The notes beneath the pieces are model-generated. The model searched no databases and was not told the origin of the DNA. It saw nothing but the letters and a program-made list of their open reading frames with translations. DNA of 64,000 nucleotides from Flaccisagitta enflata. Taxonomy: Eukaryota. Location: contig OZ231126.1 of the NCBI GenBank assembly GCA_965153355.1, positions 18,848,001 through 18,912,000 of the forward strand, written 5' to 3'. A program made the translations under genes and the position numbers. Shown here piece by piece: positions 16,900 to 57,082 of this stretch (position 1 is its first letter; every line of letters begins with the position of its first letter).

Positions 16900-19012
16900 A
16901 TGGTTTTTTTGGTCTACAATTTATCGATCATCTTGGGGATGATCTGCTCCCCAACGGATGCCGTTGCCTCTTCATACTGGGGTAATGATAACAATATCAT
17001 GTCATGATATGTTACCGGGTGAAAGTAACTGATTTGATATGCCAAAGTTCGAACCGTGCCAACTGCATGAATCTTAACGCGAACACGCAATTTTTATGTT
17101 TACCTCCCCGTGAAGCAAACGGTATCTAATAAATTATTTGTTGCTCGTCATACTCCCAATTTTCCGAACACCATCGTTTTTATTTGTGCAAAAGGGAAAA
17201 TATAAACCATGGTTATCTCCGCTTTGTACAGTAGATCTCGTCTAGACTTGAGATAACGGGGGCAAGCATTGTAGAAAAACAAATGAAGCCAAGGGAGTGA
17301 TATTTGAACCATAGACTTATAAAGGGATGCTTTATTGCCCATGATAGCTGGTTGCCATGGAAACACATTTCCATGTATTCACGCAAAAGTATCAATATTT
17401 TGAGAAATTTTTTGAGGGAACATTTTTTAAAATTAAATTTGCTACAACTTTCCCACAGTATGTTCTGTAAGAATGTCGCTCGTTTAGCGGTTGCTAAGGG
17501 TTGTCACACATAGATACGCTCCCTAGCAACGGCCAAACGAGCAACATTCTTACAGAACATACTGTGGGAAAGTTGTAGCAAATTTGATTTTAAGCAATGT
17601 TCCCTAAAAAAATCTCTCAAAATATTCATATTTGAGCGAGAATACATGGAAATGTGTTTCCATGGCAACCAGCTATCATGGGGAATTAAGCATCCTTTGA
17701 TTAATCTATGATCCAAATATTACTCCCCTGGCTTTATTTGTCTTTCCACAGTGCTTGCCCCCGTTATCTCAAGTCTAGACGGGATCTACTGTATCTAGAT
17801 AACTACAAGCAAGCAAAGGATGGAAATTTCTGCCACTTTCATGGAACTGAATTGAATTGGGAAGAAGCGAGAAACAACTGCAAACTGGAGTTGAAAGGAG
17901 CAAAACTCGCCCTTATTGACAATGAAGCCTCCCCCCAAGTTCCACTGTGATCTTAAGAACAAAGAGATCGTACCACTCCTAAACGACAACGAGATGTAAA
18001 TTGAAGGAGGTACATGTCTGTTCATAGAATATTCCTGCTAAAGACAACATGGGATACGTTGTTCCTGAAGCATAGATTTTTTTTTGTTTTTTTTTTTTGT
18101 TTTGCTTGACGTTTCTTGGCGAAAATTAAAAAGAGGGACCTCAGATGAGTGGTCATACACACATTACCAGTTTTCCTATCTCAATATAAGTCTCTGGCTA
18201 GGCGCATCCGACGTAGACAGTGAAGGGGAATGGTACTGGATCGATGAAACAATCGGAACACAAAACTTCTTCTATTAAATGGGACGAAATGCAACCATGT
18301 TATAGAAACACCGAAAGTTGTCTGTTGCTGATTGGCCCAAATGCTCGTTTACGCGACGCACCGTGTGGATGGATAAAAAGTTTCTTGTGTCAACGTTGGT
18401 AGATAAGTGAGCAAGTGAGCATTGCTCATCTTAGCATTCTTTTGTATTTCGCCAACGTTAACAACGAATCAACGATTGTTATCCCCCGTTTTGTATTTTT
18501 CTTAGCCAGTCCAAAGTGCAAAAGTTTTGTTTTGAATTTTAGCCTTAAGATGACAAATTGGAGAAATTTGCTCTCCGCTTTTCGATTAAGCTCTCCAAAG
18601 TTACGTCTTTCAGTCCGTCGTATGTGTTGTCCACGTCCGTAGGCTTTTTTATGACTGCTCCAAACCACTACAGAACCGTGCGGGGGCAACGGCAAAATGG
18701 GCGTATTTGAGAAACATGAAGTGGACCAGCAGCAATTGGAAACAAATGAATTCCTGAGGTACAAAAAAATCATCATTCCAGGCTCTAGAAAATGCTGAGG
18801 CTTTATGAAACTATGATGTCAAAGATGAATCAATTGCAAAACGAATATCCATGACCAATTCTGTTTTCAGAGCGGCCTTCAGCTTTTTGCATTCTGATGG
18901 GCGCATAACTGATGAGAATTGCGACAAAATGGATGTGAAATCTGCCACTTCAGAAGATGGCGTCATCTTCACATTGATTTCTGGGAGTGGAGGAAATCAA
19001 CCGCACACATGA
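16900..19012 (+). pseudogene. Secreted C-type lectin family, copy 1 (frameshifted pseudogene)
   Basis: Exons 16900-16981 (signal peptide MVFLVYNLSIILGMICSPTDAVASSYW), 17799-17995, 18191-18406, 18674-18758, 18871-19012. There is a frameshift/stop near 17940-17950, a frameshift near 18250-18275 and a TAG at 18400-18402. A MITE sits in the intron-1 acceptor region. Confidence 0.85.
17229..17791. mobile_element. Foldback Tc1/mariner-type MITE, family A
   Basis: TA|cagtagatctcgtctagacttgagataacgggg ... ccgttatctcaagtctagacgggatctactg|TA. The whole element is an imperfect palindrome centred at ~17510. Confidence 0.92.
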
Positions 19013-19747
19013 TTGGCTTGTGCAGCATTTTTATCATAGAGGAAAATCGATAGGGGACAAAACCAAGCCAGCAAATGCAATGTCGCTATCACTGATAGTG
19101 TCAGTCCATTACCGTAAATGTTATTTTAAGTCGCAGACACGCAACTCTCGAACTTGCTGTGTCGGTCCGTCGGTTTGTCCGTTTGTCAGTCCATCCGTCC
19201 ATCTGTCAGTTACTTTTTCGAAATGTGAGCGTCTTCTGCTATACTACCTCTGCACACCCATCCACGACTGGACTGGATGCCCATGTGGCGTGCATACGGC
19301 CTTGTTCTTGTTTCACAATCATCAAGATATGATTGGCTAATGAAATACATTTACCGCTTTTTATATCGTCTCTCCGATTTATTTTATAATCAAATTACAA
19401 GAAATGATAACGTTCTTAATAGAGCCTTTATCAAGCATTGCATTCTGCCCCTCGACCTTGCTAGTCAGTTCCTAATACCAGGTATCATCTCCATAAACCA
19501 CCTGCGACCAGGAGAACCGGCCTTCCGGCAAGAAAAAAAGTCTCATATCAGTTTATCATGTTTGTTTTGTAGATGGTAGGCAAAATTGCTGTTGGTTGGC
19601 GCAAATGGCTACACAAACATGAAGCTCTGTGGTCGATTGTTCGACTTATTTTACCATGGTAACTGTACCGCCAGAAAATGTATGAACATTCTAGTTTTTG
19701 AGGCAGAACAAACCAAAACATTTTGTTTTCTCTTGAATGAAGGCATC

Positions 19748-21122
19748 ATGATTCTGGTGCTCTGCAAATCAGGGATCATTTTGATGGTTTTCTGCATCTT
19801 CACCAATGCCGGTGCCTCTTCTCACTGGGGTAATTTCAAAAATATCATAATGTGTCGTAGACTGATATATGGGTTCAGGATACGAGAATATTCAGACCGT
19901 TCAAAATCTTAAAACTGCAAGGGATATTATCTCTATCATTAACATGATGGTTAGTAGATTACAAACAGGAATAACCGGGGGTAAAATACTTTATCGAATG
20001 CGATTGGGCAGACGCAGAGGCAGAAATAGGCGTTTTAAGTTCTCAACTCGAACGATGAACTGATCGATGGACATACGGGGGGAGAATCGGAGGGACAGAC
20101 AGACAAATGGACAGTTCTGGAGTTGGACGAACAGACAGATGGATGGACAAAGCCTCCCCTAGAGTCACTTAGCTCGCAACTTTAGATGAAATAACTTGAT
20201 TGTTTCTTCTGAAAGAAACTATGTCGCTTTTGCTTCAGCATCTGGTCAAAATACTCATAGTTTTTTTTGTTGTTTTCTTTTTTAAAAGATAAGTACAAAC
20301 AAGCAAAGGATGGGAACTTTTACAGTTTCCATACAACTGAGAAGAATTGGACTGATGCAAGATCCATTTGTAAGCAAGAGAGGAAAGGAGCAAGATTAGC
20401 CATCATCGATAACGAAATCTCGTTTCAAGCTATGAATGATCTTGAATTCATTAATCTCGACATAGGACATTGGTAAGTAGAAGTAGAAAGTGATCCGCAC
20501 ACAAAATAGATTTCATTTTGGACATCGGTCTCAATGCCAAATTCAGATCGATACCATCAGATAGATATGAATTTTATAATACTACTCAACTAAAAAAAAG
20601 CCGCACTCTATTATGGGTTGATGAAAAGGACAAAACAAATTATCTGAACTTTTTTCTTTTACAGTGAGTAAACAGATTTAAAAAATTTCTTTCATTCTAG
20701 ACCAATCCCACGTCTGTATCTCAAATTGTTTAGGAGCTAGAGCTTGTCAAATTGATCTCCTGATTTGTAACAAGGCCGGATACACGGCCACCAGTTGCGG
20801 ACGGGTGGGCAGGGGCGGAAATGCGCGTTTTCCCACTTTTCGACTCGATCACCCCAACGGACCGACCAACCGACCGACCGACCAACCGACCGACCGACGG
20901 ACAAAGCCTCTTATAGAGTTGCAACTAAAAATGCATATTTTTAATGGGGTTTCAAAACTGATAATGGCTATTTTTTTTTACTCTTTCTTATGACATTTCT
21001 AAATGAATAAAGCTAGAATTACTAAAAACTGCTAATTCTCTTTATGTTTGTTTGTCACTGTCTGTCTGTTTATTTTTTCTTTTGAATTTCTTTTTTTTTT
21101 TTTCAATTTCTCTCTTTCTCTC

Positions 21123-21220
<98 letters not shown>

Positions 21221-22973
21221 GTAGTGCAATGAGAGTGTAACAAAATTGTATTTACAGGGAATACCGCACCAACCGGGACAAAAGAAAACGACATATTTTC
21301 TCTTCTGAAAATGACAAATTTGATTTGAAAACAGATTCTGGTAGATATCTTAAACCGATTTTATATCATTAAGAAAAATCATAACTGAATAGTACACTGA
21401 AAGCACACGAAAAAATGAAAAAAAAAGCCAAAATTTGACAAACTTCTTGTAATTTTTTCCAAAAATGCGCTGAGTACTTCAATCGTTCACTTCTTTTGTT
21501 AACTATTGCAACAAAGATTGGATTAAAAAACTTGGATTTGTCTTAAATTGAATGGGGAATCAATATAGTTTTATGAAAAAGCTTTAAAAACTGATATCTG
21601 GGTTTCTTTCGTTGAAATTTTTCACTCAATTGAAGAAAAAAAAATCAAAAATCCAACTTTTTCATCAGGAAACTCGGTTAAATTTTCGAAAATTATTAAA
21701 AATAGGCAGTTTAAATGGTAGAGTATGAAACGACATCAAATTATCTATCATTCAAGACCAATCCCAGCATAGTGGCTCGATTTGTCTAGATTTGGCAAGA
21801 GTATGAAGAAATGTTGTTAAAACATCACAATCGCAAATTTTTGCAATTTCAGATTTCATGATTTACATAAGAAGTGATACTAAGGCCAAAGTATTGGTCT
21901 CACCATGACAAAGTTTATAGATAACAAAATCGGTTCTAAAGCTCTCTCTGGAACTGTTGTCAGAATTGATCCACCATTTTTAGATGCAGAGATATGTTGT
22001 TTTCTTTCGTCCCGGTAGGCGGGGTATTCCCTGTATAATTCGTCAACCCGTCTCAATTTAAGCCTTTTGGGAGCATCCGACGAAGACAGTGAAGGGACAT
22101 GGTACTGGATCGATGAAAAGGACGCAAAACATAATGCATCTTATATGCAATGGAACGAAATCGGAGAAAAAAAACAACCAGATGGCGGAGATACACAAAA
22201 CTGTCTGTTGCTCAGAAGGAGTTACTCGACAAAACTTTGGTTTCATGATGGACATTGCAAGAATTCATGGAAAGTCTTGTGTCAACGGCTGCAGAAAAGT
22301 GAGTCCTGACTGGAAAACGATAGAACCCCCTTTCAGCGTGGGTCCCATATACTTTATTGGGGTTTGAGCTCCGAGGCTAGAATTTGACTTTGTAGGAGGG
22401 GTTGCGGAAGTCGGAGAAGAAAAGATTTTCCATAGAGTATTTTCAGCCCCATACCATTTTTGACAGCGGCTGCGGCCCCAAAGGACATGATGTCCTGTGG
22501 AATACCCTCTGTAGAATACAGGGCGACTTCCATTCGTTCGTTTGTCTGTTTGTTTATTGGCCAGTCCCTCCTCTTTAATCAGCCCTCACAGGCTCCAAAT
22601 TAGCCCTCTTAAGTCTGAAATCAGCCCTTCAATCATCTTCAGAACCGTGCGGGGGCAATGGCAAAATCAAAATGGGCTTATTTGAGAAACTTGGAATTGA
22701 CCAGCAGCAATTGGAAACAATTAAACTCCTAAGGTACAACGAATCGTCATTACGGGCTCTGGGAAATACTGAGGCAGTATAAAACTACAATGCCAGGGAT
22801 GAATCAAGTGAATTTCCATTCCTAATTTCAGAGCGGCCTTCAGATTTTTCCATTCCCATGGGAGCATGGCCAATGAGAATTGCGACAAAATGGAAATGAA
22901 ATCTGCTACTTCAGAGGATAGTGTCATCTACACGTTGATTTCTGAGAGTAGAGGAAACCAACCGCTCAAATGA
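19748..22973 (+). CDS. Secreted C-type lectin (QPD motif) with novel C-terminal domain, copy 2, ~244 aa
   Basis: GT-AG exons 19748-19829, 20289-20472, 22063-22298, 22643-22733 and 22832-22973 join in frame (735 nt). Signal peptide, NWTDARSIC...GARLAII, LLGASD..EGTWYW, QPD, NCL, FHDGHC, VLCQ, then PCGGNGK...ENCDK. Confidence 0.88.
20581..21030. mobile_element. Truncated copy of the 61181 MITE family, with a nested reversed HINE-like element (~20769-20928)
   Basis: TA|ctactcaactaaaaaaaagccgcac matches the 61181 terminus, and internal sequence resembles 61570-61720. Confidence 0.55.
21255..22033. mobile_element. Non-autonomous TIR element with TA target duplication, in intron 2 of copy 2
   Basis: ~55-bp imperfect TIRs: cagggaataccgcaccaaccgggacaaaagaaaacgacatat / atatgttgttttctttcgtcccggtaggcggggtattccctg, with TA on both sides. 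Confidence 0.85.
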
Positions 22974-26729: not shown

Positions 26730-29700
26730 ATGATAATGATAGCTTACAGATTGTCGATCATCTTGGGACTGATTTGCATCTCAACAGATGCCATGGCCGA
26801 CTCGAACTGGGGTAATTATGTCGCGTGGTGCTTCCGACTGATGGTTTATTTTTTGCGTTTTACATCGATCGTACGAAATAATTTAGGAAAAAATGACATC
26901 TGAGCTGAGTTTATAACTCTATGCTTTGTGAAAGCTGGTCCATGAAAATAGTTCTATTGCAAATACAGAGAGCTCATTTATCTATCTCTTTTGCATACTC
27001 TTACAAACAAGCTGACGATAAAAACTTTTATCATTTCCATTCATCTGAGAAGAATTGGGAGGCTGCGAGGTCGACCTGCAAACAGGAGCAGAGAGGCGCA
27101 AGACTCGCCATCATCGACAAGAGTATTTCCCTGCGAGCTATAAATGACAACAATTTCTTACCTCTCAGTAACAATGACATGTAAGTAATGGAAAAGGGTC
27201 ATCTGCGCAGGATTTTTTTCTACAATTCCAAACATGATTGTCACCTACCATTATTTGTTGTTTTACCATAGCGTCAATAGAACTGGCCGATTTTTAGATG
27301 CGTCATCGCATCTCTATAAGAGGGTCTGTCCGTCCGTCCGTCGGTCCGTCCGTCCGTCCGTCTGTCCGTCCGTCCGTCCGTCCGTCCGTCCGTCCGTTAC
27401 GCCTCTTCTAATATCAAGCAGATGACGCATCGAGTTGCCCAATCCGGCTTGTTAGCTTCATATTCCATACACAGAACCAAATGCAAGGTATTTTGAAGAG
27501 CCTCCAAAACATTGACAATTTCGCTCAGTTTTTAGTTGCGGACACGCAACTCTATCAGAGGCTTTGTTCGTCCGTCCATCCGTCCATTGGCCCGTCTATC
27601 TATGGTGATTTAGTGTGGAAAGCTCTAGAAACCCGGCGAGTTTTGATAACGTTATGTATTGGTGCAGGTGAATAAAATCCTTCTTTTTTTAATTTGAACT
27701 AAAGTGTATGGTTGGGAGCATCAGACGCTGAGATAGAAGGGGAATGGTACTGGATGGATGAAAACGATGCAAAACAAAATGCTTCTTCCATTCAATGGAA
27801 CAAAGATCGAAAACAACCAGATGGCGACAAGAGGGAAAATTGTCTGATGCTGAGAATGTTTGGTTCAAATGCTAAATTGCACGACGGAAATTGCGAAGAT
27901 AAACGAAAGTTCTTGTGTCAACGTCTACAAAGAGGTGACAACTGACCATTCTGTCAGGATTTGGCGTTGAAAAAAAAAAAAAAGAAACTGCCGCCCTAAC
28001 TAGTAAAAAACGCAACTATGCCTATGGTTTGTTTTGTTTCCTTGATATAAAGCAAGTTTTTAATTGAAAAAAAAAAAGTTTTCTTTAAGAATACAGTGGC
28101 AGTACTGATCAGGAAAGTCTTTTATGCTGGGCGTTATGTAAAATTACTCAAGGAAATGTTTTGTTTGTTTTTAGTCGCGGACACGCAACTCCTTACCTTG
28201 CCGTGTCGGTCGGTAGGTCGGTAGGTCCATTACAAGTTTCAAGGGATTATTACATTACGGCTCCTGCCCAATTGTCTGTGACTGTCGTGCCGTGTATCCG
28301 GCCTTCTTTTCATTTACTCCTCTCCATCGTACAATAAAAGTAAAATTCTTCGGCCAAATTGTCAGGCACCTTACATTCTGTCTACCACGCGTTTAAAAAA
28401 AAAGACGCAGCTGGTCATTTATTGATAGAACAGACAAAAAAGATTGTTAAAAAATTTTTCCATTGAAAGTAATTTAAAGATTTTCTTTCAATCTAGACCA
28501 GTCCCAGGTCTGTATCTCAAACCGTTTAAAAGTTACAGCCAGTCAAAGACAACTAGTATTTTAAGCACTTGACAAAATTAAAAAATCATTTAAAAAATCG
28601 TTTATTTGTTTCTTTTTCTTAGGAAAATACTTAAGAAAAACTTTCAACCATTTTTCAGTCAAAGTAATTTTGAAGATTTTCAAATTTTCTTTCATTCTAG
28701 ACCAATCCCAAGTCTGCATCTCAAACGGTTTAAAAGTTATAGCTCATCAAAGAGAAACACTGATTATCTTGAATTCTTCTTCTCTTATGGAATTGTGAAA
28801 ACGTTTTTTGTCTATTTTTTCTCTATTTTTACTACGCCCAAACGCCTCAAGATTAACAACTTTTTCTTTTTCATTCTCAAAGCTTAAGAACTGGGCTTTT
28901 TAATAGTGCAAAACATTCAACTTGAAATCAAAGATTAAATAGCTAAAATAGTCATTTAAAAGTGCGTCTTTTTAGTCGCGGACACGCTACTCTACACCTT
29001 GCCGTGTCGCTCCGTCGGTCCGTAACATTTTTGAAATGTGAGTGGTTTTTGCAATACTGCTCCTGCCCAACCGTCCGCGACTGGATTGCCGTGTATCCGG
29101 CCTTGTTTTTTTTTATTCGCGTGGTATCAATACATCAATGATCTATGTGCCCAAAGAAAAGTAACTACTTTTAATTTTTTGAACACCCGTTGTCCGCGCT
29201 TACTATCGCTATCTTTGCCGGTGGCAGGAGTAGTTCAGAAACGTGAATAGACGGTCTGAAAAATGTTTTATTTGTAAACAATTAGTAAACGTTTTGTAAA
29301 CAAACGGAAATTTATATAAACAAACGTGAGCTTATCTAAACAAACAAACAAAAACAAACATGAGGCTATGAATGTTTTATACCTGAAAAACTTCTACAAT
29401 TGTCCAGCTTTTACAGTAATCGCGGAAATGTTTAATCGTAATGAAAATAGTAATGATTTTAATCTGAAAGAGAAAGAGAGATATTGATTAGTAAATGTTT
29501 TCTTCCTTTACCGTTGACGCAAAAAGAAAAAAAAAGAATTCACGCGTGTATACATCTTAACCATCGTCCATACATTCTAAAGAAAGAAATATGAATATTT
29601 GCGTAATTTTTTGCCAATTTGCCGCTTTGAGAAATAGACGCGATTCAAATGCGCTCAAGGTGAGTAAAACGAGCAAGTTTCAAAAAGAGGAAACAAATGA

Positions 29701-32700
29701 TCAAGGCATGTACGCGGAAGCGGCCACACCCCCCACTTTGACCACCCAGGGTCAAACGAGGACAAGGACAAGGACACAAACCTCCATCCCATAAGCCCAA
29801 GGACATACGCTTGCACTAACCAAAACAAAAGGCGTAACGGGCAAAGAAAAAAGGGGCTAACTTCCATACAAAATGAAAAAGCTAGTTAGGAATGAAAAGG
29901 TAAACGCCAAATGGAAGAGCCACTTATGAATGAATAAAGTATTCAGTTATGAAAGCGCTACATCGAAAATGCCCTTCTTCAAAATGAAAGAGCTTTCTCA
30001 AAAATGAAAGAGCTAATTTCGGAATGAATAAATTAATCAAAAATGAAATAGTTGCGTCAACTGATTCATTTTTCGTGAATTGAAAAACTAATACGCGATG
30101 GAAAATTAAAGGGAAAAAAGATTCTCTCTTTCCACTGATTATGAACGGAAAAAATTTGCTGGACAGATACTCGTAAGGATAAGGAATGACGTGAATGCTT
30201 GGGAGGCGAAATAAGTAGAACAGATACCCATTTACGCAAAAACATTACTTCAAAGAGAATAAGTGATGTTAATTAAAGGCGAAATAAGTATAAGAGATAC
30301 TAATTTGCGCAAAAATATAAACAAAAAAAAAACAGTAATAATGAACGACGTAGTGAAAAAAAAGCTTTCCCTTACGCAAAACATTACTATCGAACTTTTC
30401 CCCTCCAATCCCCCCCCCCCCACGTGTACATTCTCGTAAATTATCGAAGCAAAAGTCCCATGGAGAGGCGCAGTTTGACGACGAAGAGGAAGACGTGGGT
30501 GAGGCGAAAGATAGAAACTAAAATCTGAGTTGAGAGATGGACGTCGTACCTATCACAAGAGCGGCGTCGTATCTATCACAAGAGCTCCGACTTTTTATCA
30601 CAAGAGCTCCGACAATTTATCACAAGAGCTCTGACGTTCTATCACAAGAGCCAATTTATTTTCTGTCTTTCACTAATTCTTTTTCAAAACTCGAGGATTA
30701 TTTCACGTTGGTGAATTTGAAATGAACACCTAAATAGTCAGTAGAGAGAATAACTCTAATCTATCGAGAAGGAACTAAAAAAGAGGGAGAGTAAGAAAGA
30801 GACAATGAATCAATATCTAACACGTGAAAACGTCGTCTTGTTGTCGATGAGAACGGAGAGAGAACCGCGAATTTAGTTTTATTTTTACTTGGTAATGCTC
30901 GTCGGTTTGGCGGATTTGCTTCCACCGGGCGCCAACTGTTCGTCGACGGCTTCAAGGAGGACGAGGCTATTTACGTGTCTTTCCAATTCTTTTTTCTTTT
31001 TCGTACCGAGGCGTACACGACGGACGTTGCCTTCACGATCGGGGAATGTTTCGATGATGCGCGCGAGATTCCACTCGTCCCTCGGCGCATTTTCGGCGAT
31101 GAGAACAACGTCGCCAACGGCCACGTTGCGACGTTTACCGGTCCATTTCCGGCGTTGTTGCAATGACGTCACGTATTCGCGGCGCCACCGCCGCCAGAAG
31201 GCGTCAACGAGATTGCGAACGTGCCGCCAGGATTGGATGAGGATGCGTGGCGGTAATTCCGACGACGGCGGCAATATTTGAATCGATTCTGTTGCCACCA
31301 CGCCAGGATGTAGAAACGAGTTTGGAGTGAGAGCCTCGAAGTCGTCGGGGTCCATTGACACTGACGTAATTGGGCGTGAATTGAGGATGCCCTCAGCAAC
31401 GACGACGAGCGTGTGGAAGGCGTCGGCGCCGACCTCGTGTTTGTCGAGAAGGGCGTAAAAAACTTTCTTGAACGATTTTACCAACCTTTCCCACATTCCA
31501 CCAGTGTGAGGGGCGGAAGGGGGGGAGAAGGTCCATTGAATGCCTTTTGCCGCAAAATCACCGTTTATTCTTTCTCTCCACTTTTCCACTTCTTCTCTTA
31601 TTTCTCTTTCACCGGCTCGGAAATTCGTTCCGTTGTCACTCACTAAATGACGGAGGCCGGGATGACGGGCGTGGAAGCGGGAGAGAGCGTTGATGAATGA
31701 ATGGACGTCAAGGCCATCAGTTACTTCACAATGGATGGCTCTTGTTGCGGCGCAGACAAAGAGACAGACGTATCTCTTATGATGGGCTCTGCCTCTTGAT
31801 TTTATTAAGAACGGGCCGCAAAAATCGACTCCTGTTGAGGCAAACGTATGAGAGGCCGAGACGCGATATCCCGGAAGTGGCGCCATTTGTTGTTGCATAA
31901 CTGCGCCTTCATCGCGACGACAACGGAGACATTTTCTGAGGGCGCTGCGGACCGCGGCGCCATCCTGAGTGATCCAGACAGACTGACGGAGATTCGCGCG
32001 CGTGTGTTGAATTCCCACGTGACCAAAGAGATGATGATAGTGAAGAATGAGCAGCGGCGTTATCAGATGGTCGCGTGGGAGGATGATTGGATGATTGGAT
32101 GTAATCTTGCCATCAGTACGTCGGTGAATCCTGCCGCCGACGCGGAGAAGAGGAAGATTTTCATTTTCATCATCAAGATAAGGAGAGAGAGAAGAAATCT
32201 TTGACTGCTTTGCCACTTTTCCTTCCCTCTTGAGAGACGCAAATTCTGCCGCAAATCTCTCCTTTTGGAAAGCAGAAAAGATGATTTTATTCACATGGCG
32301 ATAATCAGAGGCAGAAAGAGGACGGCAGATCTCTTGTTTTATCGCGGCTGTCGTTGCTTTTTCCGACTTTTTCTTCAAGTAAAGGCTGAAACGACGAAGG
32401 ATGTTGATTCTTTGAACTAACTTGTTCCATGATGAACAATACTGAGCCAGTTTAAGAACAAAAGGATTCGGATTAGCATTGAGTGTAGAGGCGGCGATCG
32501 TTGCTTCGACATTCTCCTCTTTCTCCTCCTCCTCCTCTTCCTCATCATCCTCATCGATTCCGAAGGGGCAAACTGGCCATTGTTCGGGCGGGAGAAGGAG
32601 AAACGATGGCCCGTTTTGGAATATGTTCCAATTCTCTTCGTCATTGGACTTAATTCCACGTGACCCTATATCAGCAGGGTTAATTTCACCAGGAACGAAT

Positions 32701-35700
32701 CGAACTTGAGTGGGGGAAATCACGTCGAGGATTTTGGCCACTCGATTTCTCACAAACGTTTCGAGTTTGAGGCGAGGATTGACGATTTGCCTGATGACTG
32801 TAGAAGAGTCGGTCCAAAAGGTGAAACTTTCCATCGGTTCTTTGAAGGCTTCACTAATCGTCAATGCCATGTCTCTTGCTTTGACGACGCCGACCAATTC
32901 AGCGCGGGGAGTCGAACCGTGTAGACAACTAGTCTTTTCATTCCCAGGGATGACATGAGATTTTGCCGTCACCAGACGAACGTGGGTGACGTTCAGATCA
33001 TCAACGAATCTAACATAACAAGACGCTGAGATGCCCACCTTACTGGCGTCGGAGAAGAAGAGGAACCGTCTTTTTGCATTTTTGGCCAGTGAGTGACAGC
33101 CAATCCATCTTGGAACTTTCCGATTGACCAATGTGGGGACGGAGAGAAACCAATCGTTGAAAACTGTCATTTCACCTATGGGAATTGGATCATCCCAACC
33201 AAGTTTGAGCTGGCCGAATCTTTGTAGCTCACGTTTTGCAATGAGGGTGAATGGCGACTTCAAGCCAAGTGGGTCATAAATTGAATGGACCAATCCTAAG
33301 ACTTGGCGGCGGGTTGTGGGCGGATTTTTCAAGTACTTTTCCGCGACTTCGGTTGAAAACACATCTTCTTCAACCTCGTATCTCATTCCTAAAGCATGGT
33401 CGATCAATTTGGCATCTTCTTCTCTGGATGCGCGGAACTTCTTGACAGATTTAGCCACTTTTTCTTTGGGAATAGCATCCATGATTTTCTTGCTATTGGA
33501 CAGCCATTTGGAAATATGAAAGCCGCCGCGGCTGCAAATCTGGGTCACTTCTTCCATCAACTTTAAGCCTTCTTCTTCTTCCTCAATGCTCTCGACAAAA
33601 TCATCGACATACATATCTTCCAATAGGGCAAGAATTGCTTCAGGAGAGAAATCAGCAGCATTGTCCCGAGCACATTGTTGGAGAGCAAATGTTGCAACAG
33701 AGCTCGATGGTTTGGCGCCGAATAAATGCGCGGCCATTCTCAAAATTTTGATGATTGACCCTGGGTCACCCTCCCAAAAGAGGAACCTGAACGCATTCCT
33801 GTGCTTCTCTGGTAGCTTGACGCGCATAAAGAAATCGCCGATATCACCCATAAGCGTCCAAGGATGCTGCCTAAAGCGCAGCAAAAGATGCAGCAGCGGC
33901 GCAGCCAAATCTGGGCCTTTATAGAAAAAGTCGTTGAGGCACCTCTTGAGAGTCCTGGCTGCACAATCGTGGGTGATTCTGCGCTTCTCAGGCTTCCTTT
34001 TGTCTTGAGTGGGGTGGAGTGGGATATAGAAACAAGGCTGATCGTCGGGAACATTATTCACATCCTTGGGATACTCCCCTACCTCCTCAGCATATCCCTT
34101 CTCCACCAGAAGATTAACATGGGTCTTAACCATCTCCCACTCGGCAGGGTTGTTGGCTAATTTATCACCCAAGCGAATCAATCGGCGGTAGGCAGTGGCG
34201 GCAGTGGGAATTTCTTTCATTTCCTCCACCACTTCTTCATGAGGTTTGTTGAACACCGCATCAACTTGGTATTGACCATCAACCAGTTTGACAGAATCTT
34301 GCATGATCTTGAGAGCTTTCATGTCTTCAATTGAATGCTTTTCAGATTGTTGCCGCTGATGAGACTTTGCTGTTGGGGTTGAAGGCTCCCCCAAACAGCC
34401 CTCGTCTTGCTGCTGTAGAGTAGTTTTTTGTTTTGGGAGGATTGGGCCTCCAAAAACGTCTTCAAAACTCTCCATCTTCTCTGACTCAAAGACAAGATTC
34501 ATTTTCTTATTGAGTCGCGCATTATCAAAAGTTGTGAAGGCCACAGAAAACTTATTGGCCCTGGCTTCATGACAAGTTGGGCCAGCTATCGACCACCCCC
34601 AATAAGAACAGTACGCCGAAGGCTTGTCTTCTGTACTTCTTCTGACAGACCCATCTTCAGGCAACATGGTGAAAGCTAAATCGGATCCAAGCAACAGCTC
34701 CACTTCCTTGGGCATGGGAGACAGTTCATGGATTTTGACATCTGTCAAGTGTGGGTAACAGCTCACATCTGCCTGTCTTGGGACTGAATCAATGTCCATG
34801 GGGATACGATCAACAACTACAGCATTTGCAGCAACAGAGTAATCTGAGAAGAGAGACTTGAGTTCAACAGAACAGAATTCACTCTGTACCCTTTCAGCAC
34901 TCTTCAAAACTGTGTTGAACTCAATGTTGCATGGCTCACAATCTATGTCCATTTCTGAGGCTGTTCTTTTGATGATACAACTGCTGTCTGAGCCCTTATC
35001 AAGCATGGCAAGGACGTCACGTGATTCACCACTCTTGGGGTTGAAAATCTTGAGAGCAACAACTGGACGGAAGACTTTCTTGGAGCTATTTTTGGCAGAA
35101 GCATTGAAGACTTGGCTCTCTTGGACTTGAATTGCCTCATTTGTCTCTGCAGCAACTTCAGTCTTGATTGCTGCAACAGAAGAAGTCGATTCTTTTCCCT
35201 TTGCTGCATCTTCAATGCTTTTCTTAAACTTCTCCTTCTCTCCTTCGTCTTTCCGTTCTGCTACAAACTCTCGAAACTTTTCTTTCCCGTCTTTGTCCAA
35301 GCAGATGAGACTGTGGTGATAATTGACCCCGCAACTGCATGTAACTTGCATTGGACACCCCTTTGAACTGTGGGTACGTGAATTGCAACACTTGAAGCAA
35401 ACCCGTTGGTCATAACAAAACTTGCGTCTTTCTAAAGCGGGCATTTTCTTGAATTCAATGCAGTCATATAAATTGTGCATTTGGTTGCATTTGGCACACG
35501 GTGCTCGCCCTTTCCGCTTTTGCGTGTCTTCATTTCCTTTGACTGAAGAGGAAGAGGAAGAGTCACCAATTTCACCGGCGGCGATGGAAGCCTTTTCCGT
35601 CTTGACTTTTTAGAGATGAGGAATTACTGATGGCTGTTGGCATGCTGCAGATGGGAGATGGTAAGCAGGCGTTGAGTAAGAGGATGCTACAGATGGTCGT

Positions 35701-42308: not shown

Positions 42309-42339
<31 letters not shown>

Positions 42340-42392
42340 CTATGTAAGTATGTAAGTAAGCAAGTATGTATGTATGTAAGTAAGTACGTATG

Positions 42393-42423
<31 letters not shown>

Positions 42424-42834
42424 GTATGTATGTATGTATGTATGTACGTATGTTTGTAAGTATGTATGTTAGTATGTAAGTATGCAAGTATGTAAGTAAG
42501 TAAGTAAGTATGTAAGTATGTAAGTATGTAAGTAAGTAAATATGTAAGTATGTATGTAAGTATGTAAGTAAGTATGTAAGTATGTATGTAAGTATGTAAG
42601 TATGTATGTAAGTATGTAAGTAAATATGTAAGTAAATATGTAAGTATGTAAGTATGTAATTATGTAAGTATGTAAGTGTGTAAGTATGTATGTAAGTATG
42701 TAAGTATGTAAGTATGTAGTAAGTAAGTATGTAGTATGTTAAGTATGTAGTATGAAGTTACGTAGTTGTGTGTAGTATGAAGTTGTGTAGTTTTTTGTAA
42801 CTTAGCACGCGACTGTTGGCCTGTTGGGCTTGTT
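41036..42834 (+). mobile_element. DINE-1/HINE-like element expanded by internal satellite arrays
   Basis: 5' agtcgcgtgcacgcgact, (CGGT)n, then arrays (GGGTACTTTA)n, (CATTGTGGAA)n and (GTAT/GTAA)n at ~41835-42760, then 3' gcacgcgact, hairpin and gcttgtt. Confidence 0.75.
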
Positions 42835-43452: not shown

Positions 43453-43523
<71 letters not shown>

Positions 43524-43547
43524 CAGACAGACACAGAACAGCACACA

Positions 43548-43609
<62 letters not shown>

Positions 43610-44095: not shown

Positions 44096-47000
44096 ATGAT
44101 CACGATATCACCAAGATTGGCGGTCATCTGCAGCGTGGTGTTGATTTACTGTTCAGCGTTTGTCGTCGCCATTGAACATTGGGGTAACAGCACCAACGAA
44201 TTTGCCTTAAAATTATACTGCTTTCGTGTGCTTGAATTCAAGATTTGCCCTTGCGGGAAAAAACAAGTGAACGGTATAGACTTCGCTAACATCACCCTAC
44301 TATCATGTTAAAGCAACTTCTTCCTCAAAGAGTTTTTCAGTTTTCAAATTATTCATATCAATCAACTGTAGAAACAAGATGTTTCACCTCATCAAAACTG
44401 CTATTCGCTAAACAACTGTAAATTTCTATACCTTATCCATGCAATATTTTTCTTATTGTTTCCCTACAAAGAAAATTTCAAACAAGCGGACGATGGAAAT
44501 TTTTATCATCTTCATGATTACAAGAGGAAATGGGAAGACGCAAGAACCATTTGCAAACAAGAGCAGAAAGGATCAAGACTCGCCATCATTGAAGATGAAA
44601 TTTCTCTTGAAGCTATGGAAAAAATTGTTGGCATTCCCGGCAAACAGTGAGAAACCGTTGTAATGAGGTCAAACAGGGCCAAGTCACGTGCGGGTGGGAA
44701 GGGGCAGTGATGTAAAAAGCTAACCAAGCATTTGGGCTGGGGCAGTGCTGCGAAAACCGCTCATGAATACAGTAGATCTCATCTATACTTGAGATAACAG
44801 GGGCAAGCACTGTACGAAAACAAATGAAGCCAGGGGAGTGATATTTTAAACAAAGATTAATAAGGGGGTGCTTTATTGCTCATGATAGCTGGTTGCCATG
44901 GAAACACATTTCCATGTATTCTCGCTAAAGTATCGATATTTTGAGTGATTTTTTTAGGGAACATTGCTTAAAATAAAATTTGCTACAACTTTCCCACAGT
45001 ATGTTCTGTAAGAATGTCGCTCGTTTAGCGGTTGCTAGGGGTTGTCACACATGGATACGCTCCCTAGCAACGGCCAAACAAGCAACATTCTTACAGAACA
45101 TACTGTGGGAAAGTTGTAGCAAATTTTATTTTAAACAATGTTCCCTAAAAAAATCTCTCAAAATATTGATACTTAAGCGAGAATACATAGAAATGTGTTT
45201 CCATGGCAACCAGCTATCATGGGGAATTAAGCATCCTTTGATTAGTTTAGGATCAAAATATCGCTCCCCTGCCTTCATTCGTCTTTCCACAATGCTTGCC
45301 CCCGTTATCTCAAGTCTAGACGAGATCTACTGTACCAAAAAAACAGTGTTATGAACCAACCAATAGACCAACGCGATGGATAGAGGGATGGATGGACGGA
45401 CCAACCGACTGACGGACATAACGGGTTAAAGAGCCGCGATGACGCTATTGAAAAAGACTTTTGAAAAGGCAACTTTATCAGTCACAAAGCAGCGCAGTGC
45501 AAAAAATGTCGAATTTTCCTATTTCGACTTTTCAAGGGTCTTCTTGGGAGCATCGGACATGGAGAGTGAAGGAAAATGGTACTGGATGGATGAAAATGAT
45601 GCAAAGCTGGATGGTTCCTCTATTCAATGGCGCGCTGATATGCCAAGAAGCGAGGAAAAGCAGGACTGTTTGGTGCTGAGTGAACAATCACAACTGATTA
45701 CAGGACAGTGCACTTGGAAGAGAATATTTTTGTGTCAGCGTCAGCAAAGCAGTAAGAAAAGTGCATATGACGCACTGAAATTTAAGTAAGAGGAATTTAC
45801 CCAGAGAACTAAGTTACCATTCATGTTACTATTTTTGCTTAGGTCAATGCTTGTGTTTATTTTTTTGTATTTCAAATTGTAAAATTACATGAGGAAACTC
45901 ATCTGTCACCGGCAAAGAACAAAAATGCAAAAAGATTGAAAAATATTCAAATCTGATGCGATTAAAAAGTGAATAAAATAGTGACAATCATTTCAATAAC
46001 TGCTCACTGAAAATTTTAAATTTGCATAAAAAATCCAAATATCATTAAAATAAGAACATAGCGCCCTCAGTTGATCTGTTAGGAATCGCGCTATGTTTTT
46101 GTTTTCTTGATATTTGGATTTTCTATGCAAATTTAAAATTTTCAATGAGCCATGGTCCCTTGACAAAATGAGTTTTTTGTTGAATTTGGCATATTTTTTC
46201 AGCTGTAAAATAAAGGATTGAAATTTAAAACTGGCATATGCAAGTCAATTCATGCAAAATATGGTTGTTCGTAGTTTTATGAAAATATTAAAACAAAAAT
46301 TTTCATTAAATTTCATTTTATAAATTTCATGACTTATCTAGCTCGGGTAGCAAATTCTATGGTAATTTTCAGTGCGTCATATCGATGATCAGTGTCGCAT
46401 TTTAAAGAAATAACTCACTTATACTAAACACTATAAAATTATACTTACATATATATAAGGTTGAAGAATGAAGATAGCGTCACAGGTTAGCATTATGTTT
46501 TCTGTCTTGTACTCAAACAAATCCGTTCTTACCCACCCATCCACGACTGAAGGGGAGTGTATAGTATACGGCCTTGTTTTTCATGGATGTGGAAAGAGAA
46601 ATACGGTGAGCAGACACATTCTAATTCATGAATGGCGTCGCTTGATAATGTGGTGGTTTTTAGGAGCCTCTTATACTCGCGCTTCTACTGATGCGATTAT
46701 TATTCCAGTACCCGTATCTTCAATTGATCAGCCTGCATATTTTCATCGATTACGCCTCTCAGGACCATGCGGTGGAAATGGCAAAATCAAAACCGGCTTG
46801 TTTGAGAAGAATGGAAACAACAATCGTCAATCGGAGACAGTTGATGTCTTCAGGTACAACAATAAGGTCAAGATGGCCAATATGTGCGCTCGTCATTTTT
46901 CAGAACATGACCAATGGACCGACTAACATGACCACATACCTTTTACGCATATGCAATTGATTATGCATGTTGTACAAAAACAAGCCTGATCGGGCAACGT

Positions 47001-47702
47001 CCTGAATGTTTCTCTGCGGGTATTGACTTTGACGCTAGACATATGAAATATATTAAGGCCCTCAATTTGAGGAACAGATTGACGGGCATACAGATAAAAA
47101 GACAGAGTATCAAAAAAGGCTCTCAAAATGCCCTAATGAAAGTTTGGTTTGCAGCTGAAAAGGGCCGAAAGCTACAATTTTTGAAGAGGTGTAATGGAAC
47201 TAATAATGGATGGACAAGTGGATGGACAAATGGATGGACAAATGGATGGACAAATGGACTCTCTCTCTTATGGAGAATAGAGATGCGAGGACGCTTCGAT
47301 CTAAAAAGTGATTGGTGTTTTGGCACCAAGAATCTATCTCAGCCATTACATCTCTTTTTAGTCGCTTGATAAGCGACTCTACACGCCGCTTTGTCCGTCT
47401 GTTGATTGATCCCCAATTTGCTTTTTCGGCGCTTTTGAGCTTTTTGTGCTCACTGCTTCTCCCCAAATGCCCTAGTGACCTTTTCTATCACTGCTATTGC
47501 CCACCCGCATGTGACTGGGGTAGTAATGTATCCAACCTTGTTCAAGCTAAGGGTACTCAACCAATTTCATTTCCCCATTTACAGAACGGCATATGATCAT
47601 CTTCGCTCTAATGGAAGCCTGCTGAACGAGAATTGCGACAAAATGAATGTGAAATCCACCAAATCGGAAAATGAAGTTGACTTCAGATTGATCATTTCTT
47701 AG
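44096..47702 (+). CDS. Secreted C-type lectin-like protein (non-canonical MPR motif), copy 4, ~228 aa
   Basis: GT-AG exons 44096-44183, 44472-44646, 45537-45751, 46763-46853 and 47585-47702 are in frame (687 nt). Four CTLD cysteines, VFLGASD..EGKWYW, C-terminal PCGGNGK...ENCDK. Confidence 0.88.
44770..45332. mobile_element. Foldback MITE family A, nested in a reversed HINE-like element in intron 2 of copy 4
   Basis: TA|cagtagatctc...gagatctactg|TA, highly similar to 17229-17791. Confidence 0.92.
45768..46379. mobile_element. Non-autonomous TIR/foldback element in intron 3 of copy 4
   Basis: TIRs tgacgcactgaaa / tttcagtgcgtca flanked by TA, plus an internal inverted repeat at ~46002-46150. 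Confidence 0.7.
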
Positions 47703-48620: not shown

Positions 48621-52193
<3,573 letters not shown>

Positions 52194-52298
52194 TGATATG
52201 GGAAAGTAATCACTAGAATGAATGGAATTTTCTATTTTAAACACCTTTCTCTTGAGGCAAGAGAGGATAAGAGAGGATAAGAGAGGATAAGAGGATAA

Positions 52299-53275: not shown

Positions 53276-55208
53276 GGATAAGAGAAAAGATCAAAAAGAT
53301 ATTACACATGCTGACTATGCATGATTACTCACCCATTTTCGAGTGCAAGAGATAATTCAAGAATACACTGTTCTATTGATACAGTTTTGTAGTTGATGTA
53401 GGTAATAGTTTTTGTATTCTTATGCAACTACACGGTGAATAGAAAATGCAATTGGCACTACTATTTCTATCTATGCTGCCGGTACATTTGGTGCTTTTGT
53501 AGCGTGGGAAAGACTAGTTTTAAGCAGGCCCAACATTGAAATCAATGAAAAGCTAAATTAGAAAAAAGTTACCTGTTGAAATACCAGTAATGGCGACTAT
53601 TGCCGACCGGTAAAATTCGTTAGGGTGGTTTTTGTTTTGTTTTTTGTTTTTTTGTTTTTTTTTTCAAATTCTTCTCTCTCCTCATTTCATTTTTTTTCTC
53701 TCCTCGTTTCATTTTTCTTTTCTCTCTCTCATTATCTTCACAGAAACATCACTATTGTTAGGAGGAGACAAGTGCTTGATAGAACAAGGTCGGATACACG
53801 GCTACCGAAGACGCGTGCGGGTGGACAGGGGCCATATTTCAGGTCACCAGACCATTTGGGCAGGAGCAGTGAGGTCAAAGAAATAAAATCATAAAAAGAA
53901 GTTAAGTGTGACCGACCGACCAACAAACGGACGGACAAAGTGGGTTGTAGAGTTGCGTGCACGCGACTAAAAAACGTTATTGATTACCCATCTAGTACGA
54001 CCTGCTTTGAACGTGCTTCCTTGAACTTGAAGAAGCCATACTGAACAAATTATTCGATGGAATAGAGGACAAAGGAAAACATTCAATCCAATCTGCTGAC
54101 ATTTTGTTAGAGAACCATTATCGGTTTGTTATCATTGTTGCATTGATTTCTTTGTCCACGCTAACCGCTGCCACGGAACTCAAATTTTTCGATTGCCAAA
54201 TGCTCAGTCATGATTCCCTTCATAGAAGGCGTTTAACTCATAAGTGTATGGCACGGAATATCAAAGGGCTGTCGGCAACCGCTTTCAAGTCCGACAGTGC
54301 TTCACGCTTGACAAGGTTTGCTACTTATTCAGTCTTTTTTACTCTTAAATCATATTCTCGTGTGAGAAGTGGCAGCCTAATTTGATAGAAAAACACACGT
54401 TTTTTCTCACTCTTCTCTAGAGTGTTTTGTTATGCTGCAGTTTTTCTTTTTCTTTTTTTTTTTTCTATCTTTTTTCATTTTTTGTCTTCTTTTTCTACTT
54501 GGCCTTGAGTCCGACAGGGATGTAAGTCCGACAAACAGTTGGCCGACGTCCCTCACATCCGTCCCTGTACACCCATAAGTTTACGTTTTTTCCTTTTTCT
54601 CGTGCTCTTGTCGGAGATGGCTTACAAATTTTTCCTTGGGCCCCCTGCGTCCGATTATTGAGCACACCAACCACTGAGAGAAATGACGATAAGAGGAAAC
54701 GCGGTCTCAAATAAACAGAAACGTGATACACGCGATCCGCCTCGTTTGTAAACTAAGGATGCGGAAGCAATCGATTCCATTGCTTCCGCTCCATTTTGCG
54801 GTTTCAAATACTAGTAGCTATCTCACCCACGATACTGGAACCACTTCCCAAATCCATGTAATACGTGGTCTATATCGACGTTCATGCCATCAAACTTCCT
54901 TCAAACTTCGGTGTTTTATCGATCAATCGCCATGACAACCAATGCGATGAAATTTAGTCGTTGCCAAATTCAAACACACTCTCGTCCGTGGCAAAGAACC
55001 TGGAATGATTTCTTTTTAAGGACAGAAATAGCTTCCATGAAATGCCTTTGAATCGGAATTAACTTTTTGCTACGCAGACAAACACACTATTGGCGAACGG
55101 TTTCAAATTTGAATGTAAGGAAAATCACATCGTTCTTAACAGCGTCATATTTTCGGTTTCTGAGCAACGCAAAACGTCAACTAAGTCCAAGTCAAAGAGA
55201 GAGAAATC

Positions 55209-57082
55209 ATGAAACCCATTCTGATACTCATCTCGTCGTTGACATGTTTGGTTGTCGGCGCCGTCTCAAATTGGGGTAAATTCAAACTCACGTTTGGAGC
55301 ACATTGACTTTTTTACATCAATTTAAAGCGCTTCCTTTATGGAAATTTATTCAACATCAAAAATATAACTTTCGATTGTTTTTGATGTTTTATAGACGAC
55401 TACACTCAAGCATCGGATGGCAACTTCTATCGTTCTCTTGAGATAAAGACAAATTGGACTGAGGCGAGAGAAAAGTGCCGCAACGATTGGAAAGGAGCAA
55501 GACTCGCTATCCTCAACAATCATCAATCATACAATGCTGTACGAGGATTATATCAGTCTACTCAAAGATGGTAAACGATTTTTTGCATATATAATAATGT
55601 AGTAATATTGTATCTTCAGAGATTCTTGAAAATCCCAGATTCCTTATGTTCTTTCATTGCCTAATCGACAATGACAAAGAAATAGATGATAGAATGTTTG
55701 CCTAAATCAAAACAATGCCGAGTAAGCCATTCGGATCATCAAATGTTTGAATAACCATCCCACCAACCGACAGTTGGACATACACAACCGGTTAGAGAGG
55801 TGATTTGGCTCACCTGAAAGAAAATATAACTCAAGAGATGACTGATAAATTTTCTTTGATCTTTCTGCATTATAGGTTTTGGCTTGGAGCATCGGACAGT
55901 GACTCTGAAGATGAATGGTATTGGATAAATGAAGATGATGAAAAGGAAAATGTTTCTTTCAAAGCATGGCTGCCTGATGAGCCCAACGGAAAGACGAACG
56001 AAAATTGTTTAATGATGACAAAAATAGGAGATTGGATTGATTTAACATGCAAGCATGACGGAGTACCTTTGTGTCAAGTCCTGCAGAAACGTGAGTAAGA
56101 CCGTACACTAATGGGTTGCCTGAATTAGATATCTGTGTTTCTTTTTCAATCCCATTTAAAAAAAAAGTGCAATGCATGATTGAGTTTTTTTAAAACGACA
56201 AAAAATTTTCAAACCAAAATGAAGAGAAACAAGGCCAAAAGCGCCGATAAGGTGCGACGTGTGGATCATCGGACGAATGAGTTACCAACAGACAGACAGA
56301 CCGACAAACAGACGGACAAAGCAAGTTATAGAGGTGCTTTGTCGCACCTAAAAATCAACGGGGATTGCATTGGCTACGTAGTGTGTATGCATTTTCGTAA
56401 ACAAACAGGGATTCAAAATTAATTTTTACTCATAAGTATGGCAGATATTTCTTGCCTTCATGGTTCCCCCGATTTGTGTGGTAACCAGAACAAGGGCCAA
56501 TAATTTGTTTTTTTTGTTTATCAGATATGATTGCTATCAAATAAATACCTCAGCCATGTTAATACGATCTTGGAAATGTCTAATTTGCGTCTTATTTCTT
56601 AACCAACTGCCACAGGTCCCTGCGTTCAAGGCGGGGATGTCGTTGCTGGTTTATTCAAGAAAAAAGACGCGAAAGTTGAGCGTCTGGAAGTGCGCGATAT
56701 TTTGACGTAAGTAATGCAACGTAACTTTGCTTGAATTTTTCTCACAACAAAACCACACTGTTTTTTTTTTTCAGAATTACTTGGTTTTGATGATGTATTT
56801 GTTTCGCTCATTAATTAAGATATAAGAGTCATTATTCATTAGACCGTGAATGTATACGAAGTCACGTCCACCATGTCCGTGGACGTGGTGAAATTTGGTC
56901 ATGAAATCCAGTACTGTAGGTCTTGAATAACTTTATACTTCCGTAATTGTTCCACCTTCAGCGCGGTTTTCGATTATTTTCAATCTGATGGGAACAAACA
57001 CAACGAGAATTGCAACAATCGCAAATTCAAAGTGAAATCCAAAAACGTCAACGCAGTTTTTAAAGCCATGGAGGCCAACTAG
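55209..57082 (+). CDS. Secreted C-type lectin (EPN/WID, mannose-type motif), copy 6, most divergent, ~222 aa
   Basis: GT-AG exons 55209-55275, 55396-55570, 55876-56090, 56616-56706 and 56962-57082 are in frame (669 nt). FWLGASD, WLPDEPNG..NENC, WIDLTC, PLCQ, then PCVQGG...ENCNN. Confidence 0.88.

Follow-up and report, generated by a model that had tools for sequence, protein, structure and literature searches.

Gene cluster

Six paralogous genes, each of five exons, are located on the + strand between positions 16900 and 57082 of the window, the whole stretch of 64,000 nucleotides that was analysed. The genes, the modules encoded by their exons 4 and 5, and one mobile element are as follows.

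16900..19012, + strand: g1, pseudogene; exons 16900-16981, 17799-17995, 18191-18406, 18674-18758, 18871-19012; module 18674..19012 (exons 4 and 5)
19748..22973, + strand: g2, open, 244 aa; exons 19748-19829, 20289-20472, 22063-22298, 22643-22733, 22832-22973; motifs QPD/FHD; module 22643..22973 (first Cys in exon 4, second in exon 5)
26730..39955, + strand: g3, doubtful, 249 aa with the upstream acceptor; exons 26730-26811, 26973-27180, 27705-27934, 38155-38245, 39817-39955; motifs QPD/LHD; module 38155..39955 (exons 4 and 5)
29190..37764, - strand: Pao/BEL LTR retrotransposon in intron 3 of g3; LTRs 98.6% alike; Peptidase_A17, DUF5641 and Integrase_H2C2; 5-bp target duplication
44096..47702, + strand: g4, open, 228 aa; exons 44096-44183, 44472-44646, 45537-45751, 46763-46853, 47585-47702; MPR/LIT, without sugar-binding motif; module 46763..47702 (exons 4 and 5)
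48621..52193, + strand: g5, open, 228 aa; exons 48621-48687, 50614-50800, 51105-51331, 51787-51877, 52079-52193; motifs QPT/LID; module 51787..52193 (exons 4 and 5)
55209..57082, + strand: g6, open, 222 aa, most divergent of the six; exons 55209-55275, 55396-55570, 55876-56090, 56616-56706, 56962-57082; motifs EPN/WID; module 56616..57082 (exons 4 and 5)

The introns have a GT donor and an AG acceptor in all 24 cases. The preliminary description of six paralogs with five exons and intron phases 1,2,1,2 is borne out, the phases having been checked in all five open genes (g2-g6), and so is the length of exon 4, which is 91 nt in these five copies and 85 nt in g1. The module consensus with its two Cys residues is found as described. 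The open reading frames indeed never connect the module with the lectin exons: none of at least 80 aa in the window joins exons 3, 4 and 5. The predicted full products of the family are soluble secreted proteins about 220-250 aa long, consisting of a signal peptide, a CTLD and a module of 66-69 aa. In the five open window proteins the N-terminus is hydrophobic and a later membrane segment is absent (maximum 19-residue hydropathy 0.91).

All six copies are present in the window. Four of them are clean genes, the status of g3 is doubtful, and g1 has become a pseudogene. The gene g1 has frameshifts in exons 2 and 3, a premature stop in exon 3 and an exon 4 that is six nt short. Its exon-3 lesions are also present in a 94%-identical partial copy on another contig (C8:27.84 Mb) and are therefore not sequencing errors. 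In g3, the exon-2 acceptor is AT where the paralogs use AG; an upstream GAG at 26970-26972 could replace it without loss of frame, lengthening the protein by 8 aa. This gene's intron 3 is 10.2 kb long and houses the Pao/BEL element, which lies outside the lectin gene proper yet bears on whether g3 works.

The CTLD

The CTLD starts directly after the signal-peptide exon; an N-terminal collagen or coiled-coil region is absent, with no Gly-X-Y run. Exon 3 matches Pfam Lectin_C in all five genes scanned (E 6e-9 to 8e-4), above the cut-off of 22.6 bits in four of them and at 20.5 bits in g5. The match of exon 2 is weak (E 0.014-0.067, three of three scanned). Four canonical CTLD Cys residues are found in exons 2-3 of g2-g6, and the WIGL-type β2 motif is present, reading xLGAS. 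The roles of the EPN, QPD and WND motifs in the sugar/Ca2+ site are given in the part of PMC7618208 that deals with them. In 17 CTLDs WND does not occur, while EPN and QPD are found in four each; in none of them does EPN or QPD stand together with WND at Ca2+ site 2, and g4 and g5 have neither EPN nor QPD. Judged by these motifs, a complete calcium/sugar site is absent from every CTLD examined (n=17). The earlier term "lectin" is thus not supported, given the lack of WND.

The family across the genome

The family is not confined to the window. Exon 5 occurs in 24 copies spread over six of the nine contigs, and 21 of these are located downstream of CTLD exons. At 15 other loci the donor after exon 4 is GT in 14 and GC in one, and no intronless or read-through copy of the module was found among them. 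At C7:53.19 Mb the module is retained at a locus with three consecutive CTLD exons, the first two of which are without a module. The copy at C2:97.02 Mb has no CTLD within 67 kb upstream, and none of the 79 upstream ORFs left after low-complexity filtering, where its partner was sought, has a Pfam match. The family consists of about twenty secreted C-type lectin-like genes ending in one conserved two-cysteine domain and is probably lineage-restricted. It extends, genuinely if modestly, the long list of lectin designs peculiar to single invertebrate lineages.

Coding status and splicing of the module

The module is protein-coding and constrained. Its dN/dS is 0.31 pooled over 28 pairs and 0.32 over five disjoint pairs (Fisher p 7e-14), compared with 0.28-0.29 for the CTLD, and its substitutions fall mostly at third codon positions. 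Its splice sites are kept among paralogs on several contigs. The conserved splice geometry and the purifying selection support the proposal that exons 4-5 encode a genuine module which belongs to a secreted CTLD protein.

The five exons are almost certainly joined by splicing into one mRNA, as their geometry suggests. A lack of connection between exons 4-5 and the lectin exons, with transcripts stopping after exon 3 or the module forming a separate gene, is very improbable. Such an arrangement would agree with the absence of spliced reads in the two runs compared with positions 52040-57200, where X1 (marine metatranscriptome contigs, word share 0.08) aligned in short pieces without splicing, one of them crossing intron 1 of g6, and the RNA run X2 matched repeats only; this comparison is uninformative on splicing. 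A short CTLD-only form is also conceivable, as reading through the exon-3 donor leads to a stop after 2-12 codons in g2, g3, g4 and g6. However, this GT donor is at the identical codon position in all six genes, in a phase that fits the exon-4 acceptor; the interval from exon 3 to exon 4 contains no detected signal-peptide exon, and intron 3 is 267-1011 nt long in five genes, all of which argues against this arrangement.

It had been supposed that a constant module is paired with a variable recognition domain. This is not supported, in view of equal identity, the same dN/dS and pairwise identities that change in step. Among 13 non-redundant members, identity averages 0.42 in the module and 0.43 in the CTLD, the module is ahead in no more than 35 of 78 pairs, and the pairwise identities of the two correlate (Mantel rho 0.70, p 0.0006). 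The CTLD and the module diverge equally and together. Only four pairs of recent duplicates hint at the opposite, with conservation slightly higher in the module (0.85-1.00 vs 0.81-0.97 for the CTLD).

Sequence features and relatives of the module

The module begins 8 residues past the last CTLD Cys. Its two Cys residues, 45 residues apart, are invariant in 13/13 non-redundant members, and 16 of 17 modules contain exactly two Cys, which favours an internal bond. An amphipathic helix of about 12 residues is located at columns 27-38. Strand-type alternation is seen at columns 6-16 and 48-54, while the strand call from periodicity is ambiguous at columns 21-29 and 61-69. The invariant polar residues near the second Cys are N44 and N46 (13/13), E45, K49 and S38 (11/13) and D27 (10/13). 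The column table contains no conserved Trp or Tyr of the sugar-stacking type. Structure prediction, run on the two halves separately, gave pLDDT 62 and pTM 0.17 for exon 5 and pLDDT 56 and pTM 0.13 for exon 4, models too poor for a fold search.

The exons, searched singly as half-domains of 29-46 aa with low power for remote homology, retrieve nothing significant from Pfam, NCBIfam, PDB sequences or the ESM Atlas. In Pfam, 12/12 exon-4 and exon-5 peptides of the window genes are without a significant match (best E 0.15); NCBIfam matches 0/12, and two ESM Atlas searches with low recognition scores gave no usable match. No PAN-family match was obtained with 17 exon-5 and 14 exon-4 peptides (half-domains only), and no phage match was found. 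The exon-5 profile has one match among 7999 scored candidates and one in 1.84 billion protein representatives; in each case this is P0001, a fragment from genomic read-through that belongs to the family itself and is near-identical to the paralog at C1:13.68 Mb. The exon-4 region has no candidate among proteins of 84-268 aa. The CTLD exon-3 profile has 8 matches with no spliced family member among them, and the databases seem to hold none. No published description of the module was found in the mostly open-access literature searched. At the level of single-exon searches, the module therefore still corresponds to no recognised domain, as first proposed.

Several candidate relatives were rejected. 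A degenerate second CTLD has an hhalign probability of 0.4-0.8% against the family's own CTLD, exon 2 and exon 3 profiles; a stretch N-E-N-C is nevertheless common to module and CTLD. Both exon profiles weakly match pneumococcal choline-binding repeats over local stretches of 11 residues (best single-stretch E 20-250). These repeats are about 20 aa long with a Trp/Tyr cage, whereas the module is non-repeated and has no conserved Trp, and the match was ascribed to short-motif chance. Two JGI metagenome loci with a match of only 10 aa were also taken as chance.

Proposed function

The pattern of helix, strands and cysteines suggests that the module is probably one small α/β domain, roughly strand-(strand)-helix-strand-strand, with a disulfide between the two invariant Cys. 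Because it starts so close to the last CTLD Cys, it would pack rigidly against the CTLD rather than hang on a stalk. Given a disulfide-closed domain, it may about equally well serve or not serve as a protein-protein surface, its most likely role, for dimerisation or for docking onto a common partner or a mucus/matrix scaffold. Jointly with this, the CTLD, mostly without the canonical Ca2+/sugar site, would recognise microbial or self surfaces like secreted invertebrate recognition proteins. The whole chain, a spliced secreted two-domain protein with the disulfide-closed α/β module as its protein-protein surface, is proposed tentatively, at somewhat below even confidence. Three observations are at odds with parts of it: the helix is too short for a coiled-coil neck, the C7 locus keeps the module though its three CTLD exons would already make it multivalent, which argues against simple avidity, and the C2 copy has no CTLD near it.

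The module could instead be a second ligand-binding domain, for glycan, microbial wall or metal, supplementing or replacing the degenerate Ca2+ site of the CTLD. The polar cluster by the second Cys would suit the binding of a ligand or metal, WND is missing from the CTLDs, and the module is retained behind three CTLD exons and present without a nearby CTLD. A precedent is the role thought for PAN/CW in nematode CTLD proteins in the relevant part of PMC5297725. However, the module has no sugar-stacking Trp/Tyr and matches no lectin family, and the conserved Asn/Gly could be structural caps; we consider this role rather unlikely. It is less likely still that the module is only a structural extension completing or capping a CTLD subfamily. 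The very short linker, the divergence in step and the position of most exon-5 copies behind CTLD exons would agree with this, but all four canonical Cys are present in the CTLD, which ends normally at exon 3, the two domains are separated by intron 3 in phase 1, CTLD exons lacking a module exist on C7 as does a module without a nearby CTLD on C2, and common duplication dates would also produce divergence in step.

A strongly diverged known small α/β fold, new only as a sequence family, is a real possibility, though below the docking proposal, and would fit either docking or ligand binding. PAN/apple-like and β-grasp-like folds are the candidates that we presume. The half-domain queries are weak for remote homology, and spliced members are seemingly absent from the databases. 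On the other side, no member has a Pfam match below E 0.15, no ESM Atlas feature was matched (at low recognition scores), and PAN domains have about six Cys, compared with two here. It is also rather doubtful that the module has a new extracellular fold and acts independently in binding or docking, carried by proteins with one or three CTLDs and perhaps by a non-lectin partner at C2:97.02 Mb. If true, it would point to a secreted recognition system specific to the phylum, with the tail rather than the sugar site coupling recognition to an effector or a mucus/cuticle scaffold.

Comparison with known systems

What is new here is an uncatalogued family of small extracellular domains, clearly bordered and represented by some twenty natural variants, whose expression and structure determination would cost little. 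Its division between two short exons is the reason why gene predictors and domain scans overlook it. Should the fold prove new, or the domain bind a ligand of its own, the family would illustrate how a little-studied marine lineage rebuilt its secreted recognition proteins once the canonical sugar site had been lost from most of their CTLDs.

Collectins (group III) and tetranectin-type lectins also have an accessory region able to multimerise the CTLD. Their collagen or coiled-coil regions are N-terminal, while the present family has no Gly-X-Y run and no long heptad helix. The soluble single-CTLD proteins, vertebrate group VII and its invertebrate counterparts, are alike in the signal peptide, the single four-Cys CTLD, secretion, tandem duplicates and the frequent loss of sugar motifs; as outlined in the sections of PMC514892 on these groups, they are mostly a CTLD alone, whereas here a 66-69-aa two-Cys module is added at the C-terminus.

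Nematode CTLD proteins with CW (PAN) or CX likewise combine a CTLD with a small accessory domain, in the portion of PMC5297725 concerned. The closest parallel in kind is CX, nematode-specific and with no function assigned in that portion. However, these proteins belong to another lineage, the module exons match no Pfam family, and the Cys count is unlike that of PAN. The echinoderm proteins SM50, OwSM21 and OwSM24, as treated in part of PMC4336488, are duplicated families of secreted CTLDs with a C-terminal accessory region, so C-terminal extensions on secreted CTLDs have a precedent. Their tails are described there as fast-diverging low-complexity Pro/Gln/Asn repeats, while the module is non-repetitive, with a hydrophobic core pattern and constraint equal to that of the CTLD.

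Lineage-specific partner domains on invertebrate CTLD proteins are already known to be common. The bivalve-specific CTLD proteins resemble the present family in their lineage-specific expansion and new domain combinations, described as the invertebrate rule in the text concerned of PMC10140915. The partners named there are known domains, WSC, sushi, scavenger receptor, apextrin and Ig, and the module matches none of these in Pfam.

Gene family in the window

The DNA of the window is repeat-rich, with about 40% GC. Cross-comparison of its exons gave six paralogs on the + strand (g1 to g6). The exact borders confirmed what the preliminary description had reported: a shared five-exon layout, intron phases 1,2,1,2 and an exon 4 of 91 nt in five copies (g2-g6). 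Exon 4 of g1 has 85 nt. A GT donor and an AG acceptor are present in all 24 introns. Exon 1 encodes a hydrophobic, signal-peptide-like segment (an assignment based on hydropathy alone), exons 2-3 produce the Lectin_C match for a C-type lectin-like domain (hereafter CTLD), and exons 4-5 encode the C-terminal module. By hydropathy, no membrane segment or hydrophobic tail follows exon 1 in the five open proteins.

The family of six stands as six paralogs, but not as six working genes: four are clean, one is doubtful and one is dead. Open proteins are encoded by g2 (244 residues), g4 and g5 (228 each) and g6 (222). The 249-residue protein of g3 is obtained solely with an upstream GAG acceptor, because the acceptor position of its paralogs reads AT in g3. 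Two exons of g1 are frameshifted and a premature stop is present; g1 is a pseudogene. Its exon-3 lesions are also found in a partial copy on contig C8, 94% identical. Other elements of the window are as follows.

990-1739, +: stop-free frame of 249 residues, resembling by eye the final part of a LINE reverse transcriptase; no Pfam match at E 0.001
17227-17793, 44768-45334 and 59816-60392: palindromic MITE-like element of about 570 bp, with a relative at 13756-14361
23300-24900 and 41000-42760: lengthy tandem arrays of low-complexity sequence separating lectin genes, a source of spurious open frames
29190-37764: Pao/BEL LTR retrotransposon of 8.6 kb in intron 3 of g3; ORFs 35610-37196 and 30885-35609 on the - strand

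One MITE-like copy stops just 5' of the exon-2 acceptor of g1 and another lies within intron 2 of g4. The Pao/BEL element, with LTRs 98.6% alike, a 5-bp target duplication and no copy in the duplicate cluster described below, is young and apparently intact.

Copies across the genome

The genome (794 Mb in nine contigs, the window being C1:18,848,001-18,912,000) was searched for further copies, and selected regions were scanned with HMMs. At least 24 copies of exon 5 were found, a lower bound, on C1, C2, C3, C7, C8 and C9, and for 21 of these 24 an upstream CTLD exon lies on the same strand. Of the other three, those at C3:24.41 Mb and C3:91.02 Mb each represent a partial segmental copy of another locus. 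At 15 loci checked outside the window the donor 3' of exon 4 has an identical phase; 14 of them carry GT and one carries GC. The more unusual loci are listed here.

C1:13.685-13.688 Mb (L049): divergent paralog with a frameshifted exon 5; exon 4, missed by the profile, is possibly split into two small exons; partial copy at C3:91.017 Mb
C1:19.027-19.056 Mb (L039-L042): the g2-g6 cluster again, about 160 kb downstream, DNA identity 85-98%, its g3 copy without a matching exon 2
C2:97,021,950-97,022,265 (L054:2951-3265), -: divergent module with a 6-residue insertion and intact splice sites
C7:53.186-53.195 Mb (L055, L080): three consecutive single-exon CTLDs, then one module

The second g2-g6 cluster is either a true duplication or an uncollapsed haplotype. 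No CTLD was found in the 67 kb upstream of the C2 module, and none of 79 filtered upstream ORFs has a Pfam match; this module may be stand-alone or fused to a different partner. The C7 array is probably one gene, since its donors are of phase 1 and no module lies between the CTLD exons. Single-exon CTLDs of this subfamily occur there and at C8:26.04 Mb. The genome holds at least 150 Lectin_C matches (503 candidates, 150 of them scored), so the module-bearing proteins are one subfamily; many of these matches are single-exon CTLDs within long open frames that can reach about 1000 residues. ENA metagenome proteins include near-identical fragments of family members (P0001, P0009). Together with pieces of the region in a marine metatranscriptome, these fragments point to a marine invertebrate as the probable source.

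Sequence and structure of the module

The module is coding and constrained. Its Nei-Gojobori dN/dS is 0.31 over 28 pairs among eight close members (CTLD, 0.28) and 0.32 over five disjoint pairs (Fisher p 7e-14; CTLD, 0.29). Both cysteines, proposed earlier as invariant, are indeed kept in all 13 non-redundant members, as are G6, F13, N44 and N46. Exactly two cysteines, 45 residues apart, are found in 16 of 17 modules, and from this count they are best read as forming one internal disulfide. Column hydropathy has strand-type alternation at positions 6-16 and 48-54 and an amphipathic helix at 27-38; together with the conserved V-x-F-x-L-I end, this points to a compact alpha/beta domain some 68 residues long. 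Each half of the module, folded alone, gave no fold, a result of little weight with such short peptides and shallow alignments. In the five window proteins the first module cysteine comes 8 residues after the last CTLD cysteine, and for this reason the two domains probably pack together.

The earlier remark that the module was not recognised as a known domain holds at the sensitivity of half-domain queries. In Pfam nothing was found below E 0.15 (12 window peptides, 17 exon-5 and 14 exon-4 peptides), and none of 12 peptides matched NCBIfam. In the large protein sets exon 5 retrieved solely P0001, a genomic read-through fragment, and exon 4 nothing. Among PDB sequences only pneumococcal choline-binding repeats were matched, over short local stretches. 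The whole-sequence E of 0.0013 for exon 5 is a sum over eight repeats, the best single stretch having E 250, and this identity was rejected because the module has neither repeat nor Trp cage. A degenerate CTLD was likewise rejected (hhalign probability below 1% against the family's own CTLD). Every library search was run with half-domains (27-46 residues), and the databases apparently contain no spliced family member; absence of a homolog thus means none detectable at that sensitivity. As a domain family, this tail is uncatalogued.

The module and the lectin domain compared

The proposal of a constant module paired with a variable recognition domain was not upheld. With the recent duplicates d2, d4, d5 and d6 omitted, the module has a mean pairwise identity of 0.419 among the 13 non-redundant members and the CTLD one of 0.431, and the module is the more similar in 35 of 78 pairs. 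Slightly better conservation of the module is seen in the four recent pairs of duplicates. The identities of the two domains are correlated (rho 0.70, permutation p 0.0006), which can be explained by shared duplication dates alone. In both trees g6 falls with the C9 gene and the window genes pair with their respective duplicates; the majority of deeper branches are unresolved. Nothing indicates tail homogenisation or domain swapping.

Canonical sugar binding is described in PMC7618208 as requiring WND plus EPN or QPD, and WND is present in none of 17 CTLDs. The nearest to the canonical pair is EPN/WID of g6; g2 and g3 have QPD with xHD, while g4 and g5 have neither EPN nor QPD. These are lectin-like proteins, members of the CTLD superfamily for which canonical lectin status, and any sugar binding, is hypothetical.

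Possible function

Pieces of the window region are present in a marine metatranscriptome. Direct RNA support for splicing of the module was sought and not obtained. The pattern of constraint and splice sites argues that the exon 4-5 tail is a real feature of these CTLD genes, and a module not fused to the CTLD is very improbable. We tentatively propose that the module would serve a secreted recognition protein as a surface for docking or dimer formation. The three-CTLD locus on C7 and the C2 module without a nearby CTLD favour an independent role of the module over simple avidity. A second ligand site seems rather unlikely, and a mere structural extension improbable. Given half-domain queries, it is quite conceivable that the module is a remote version of a known fold, which would be compatible with a docking or dimer surface as well as with a second ligand site.

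Comparison with known systems

Among the papers listed by the literature searches, none was seen to describe the module. In the accessible parts of the chaetognath atlas (10.1101/2025.01.31.635879), C-type lectin domains appear solely as immune-cell markers. Lineage-specific CTLD architectures are described as the rule among invertebrates (PMC10140915, PMC514892). Nematode CTLDs, according to PMC5297725, are joined to CW/PAN domains and also to a lineage-specific CX domain without assigned function. Echinoderm spicule proteins carry low-complexity tails at the C-terminus (PMC4336488), and a C-terminal accessory region on a CTLD therefore has precedent.
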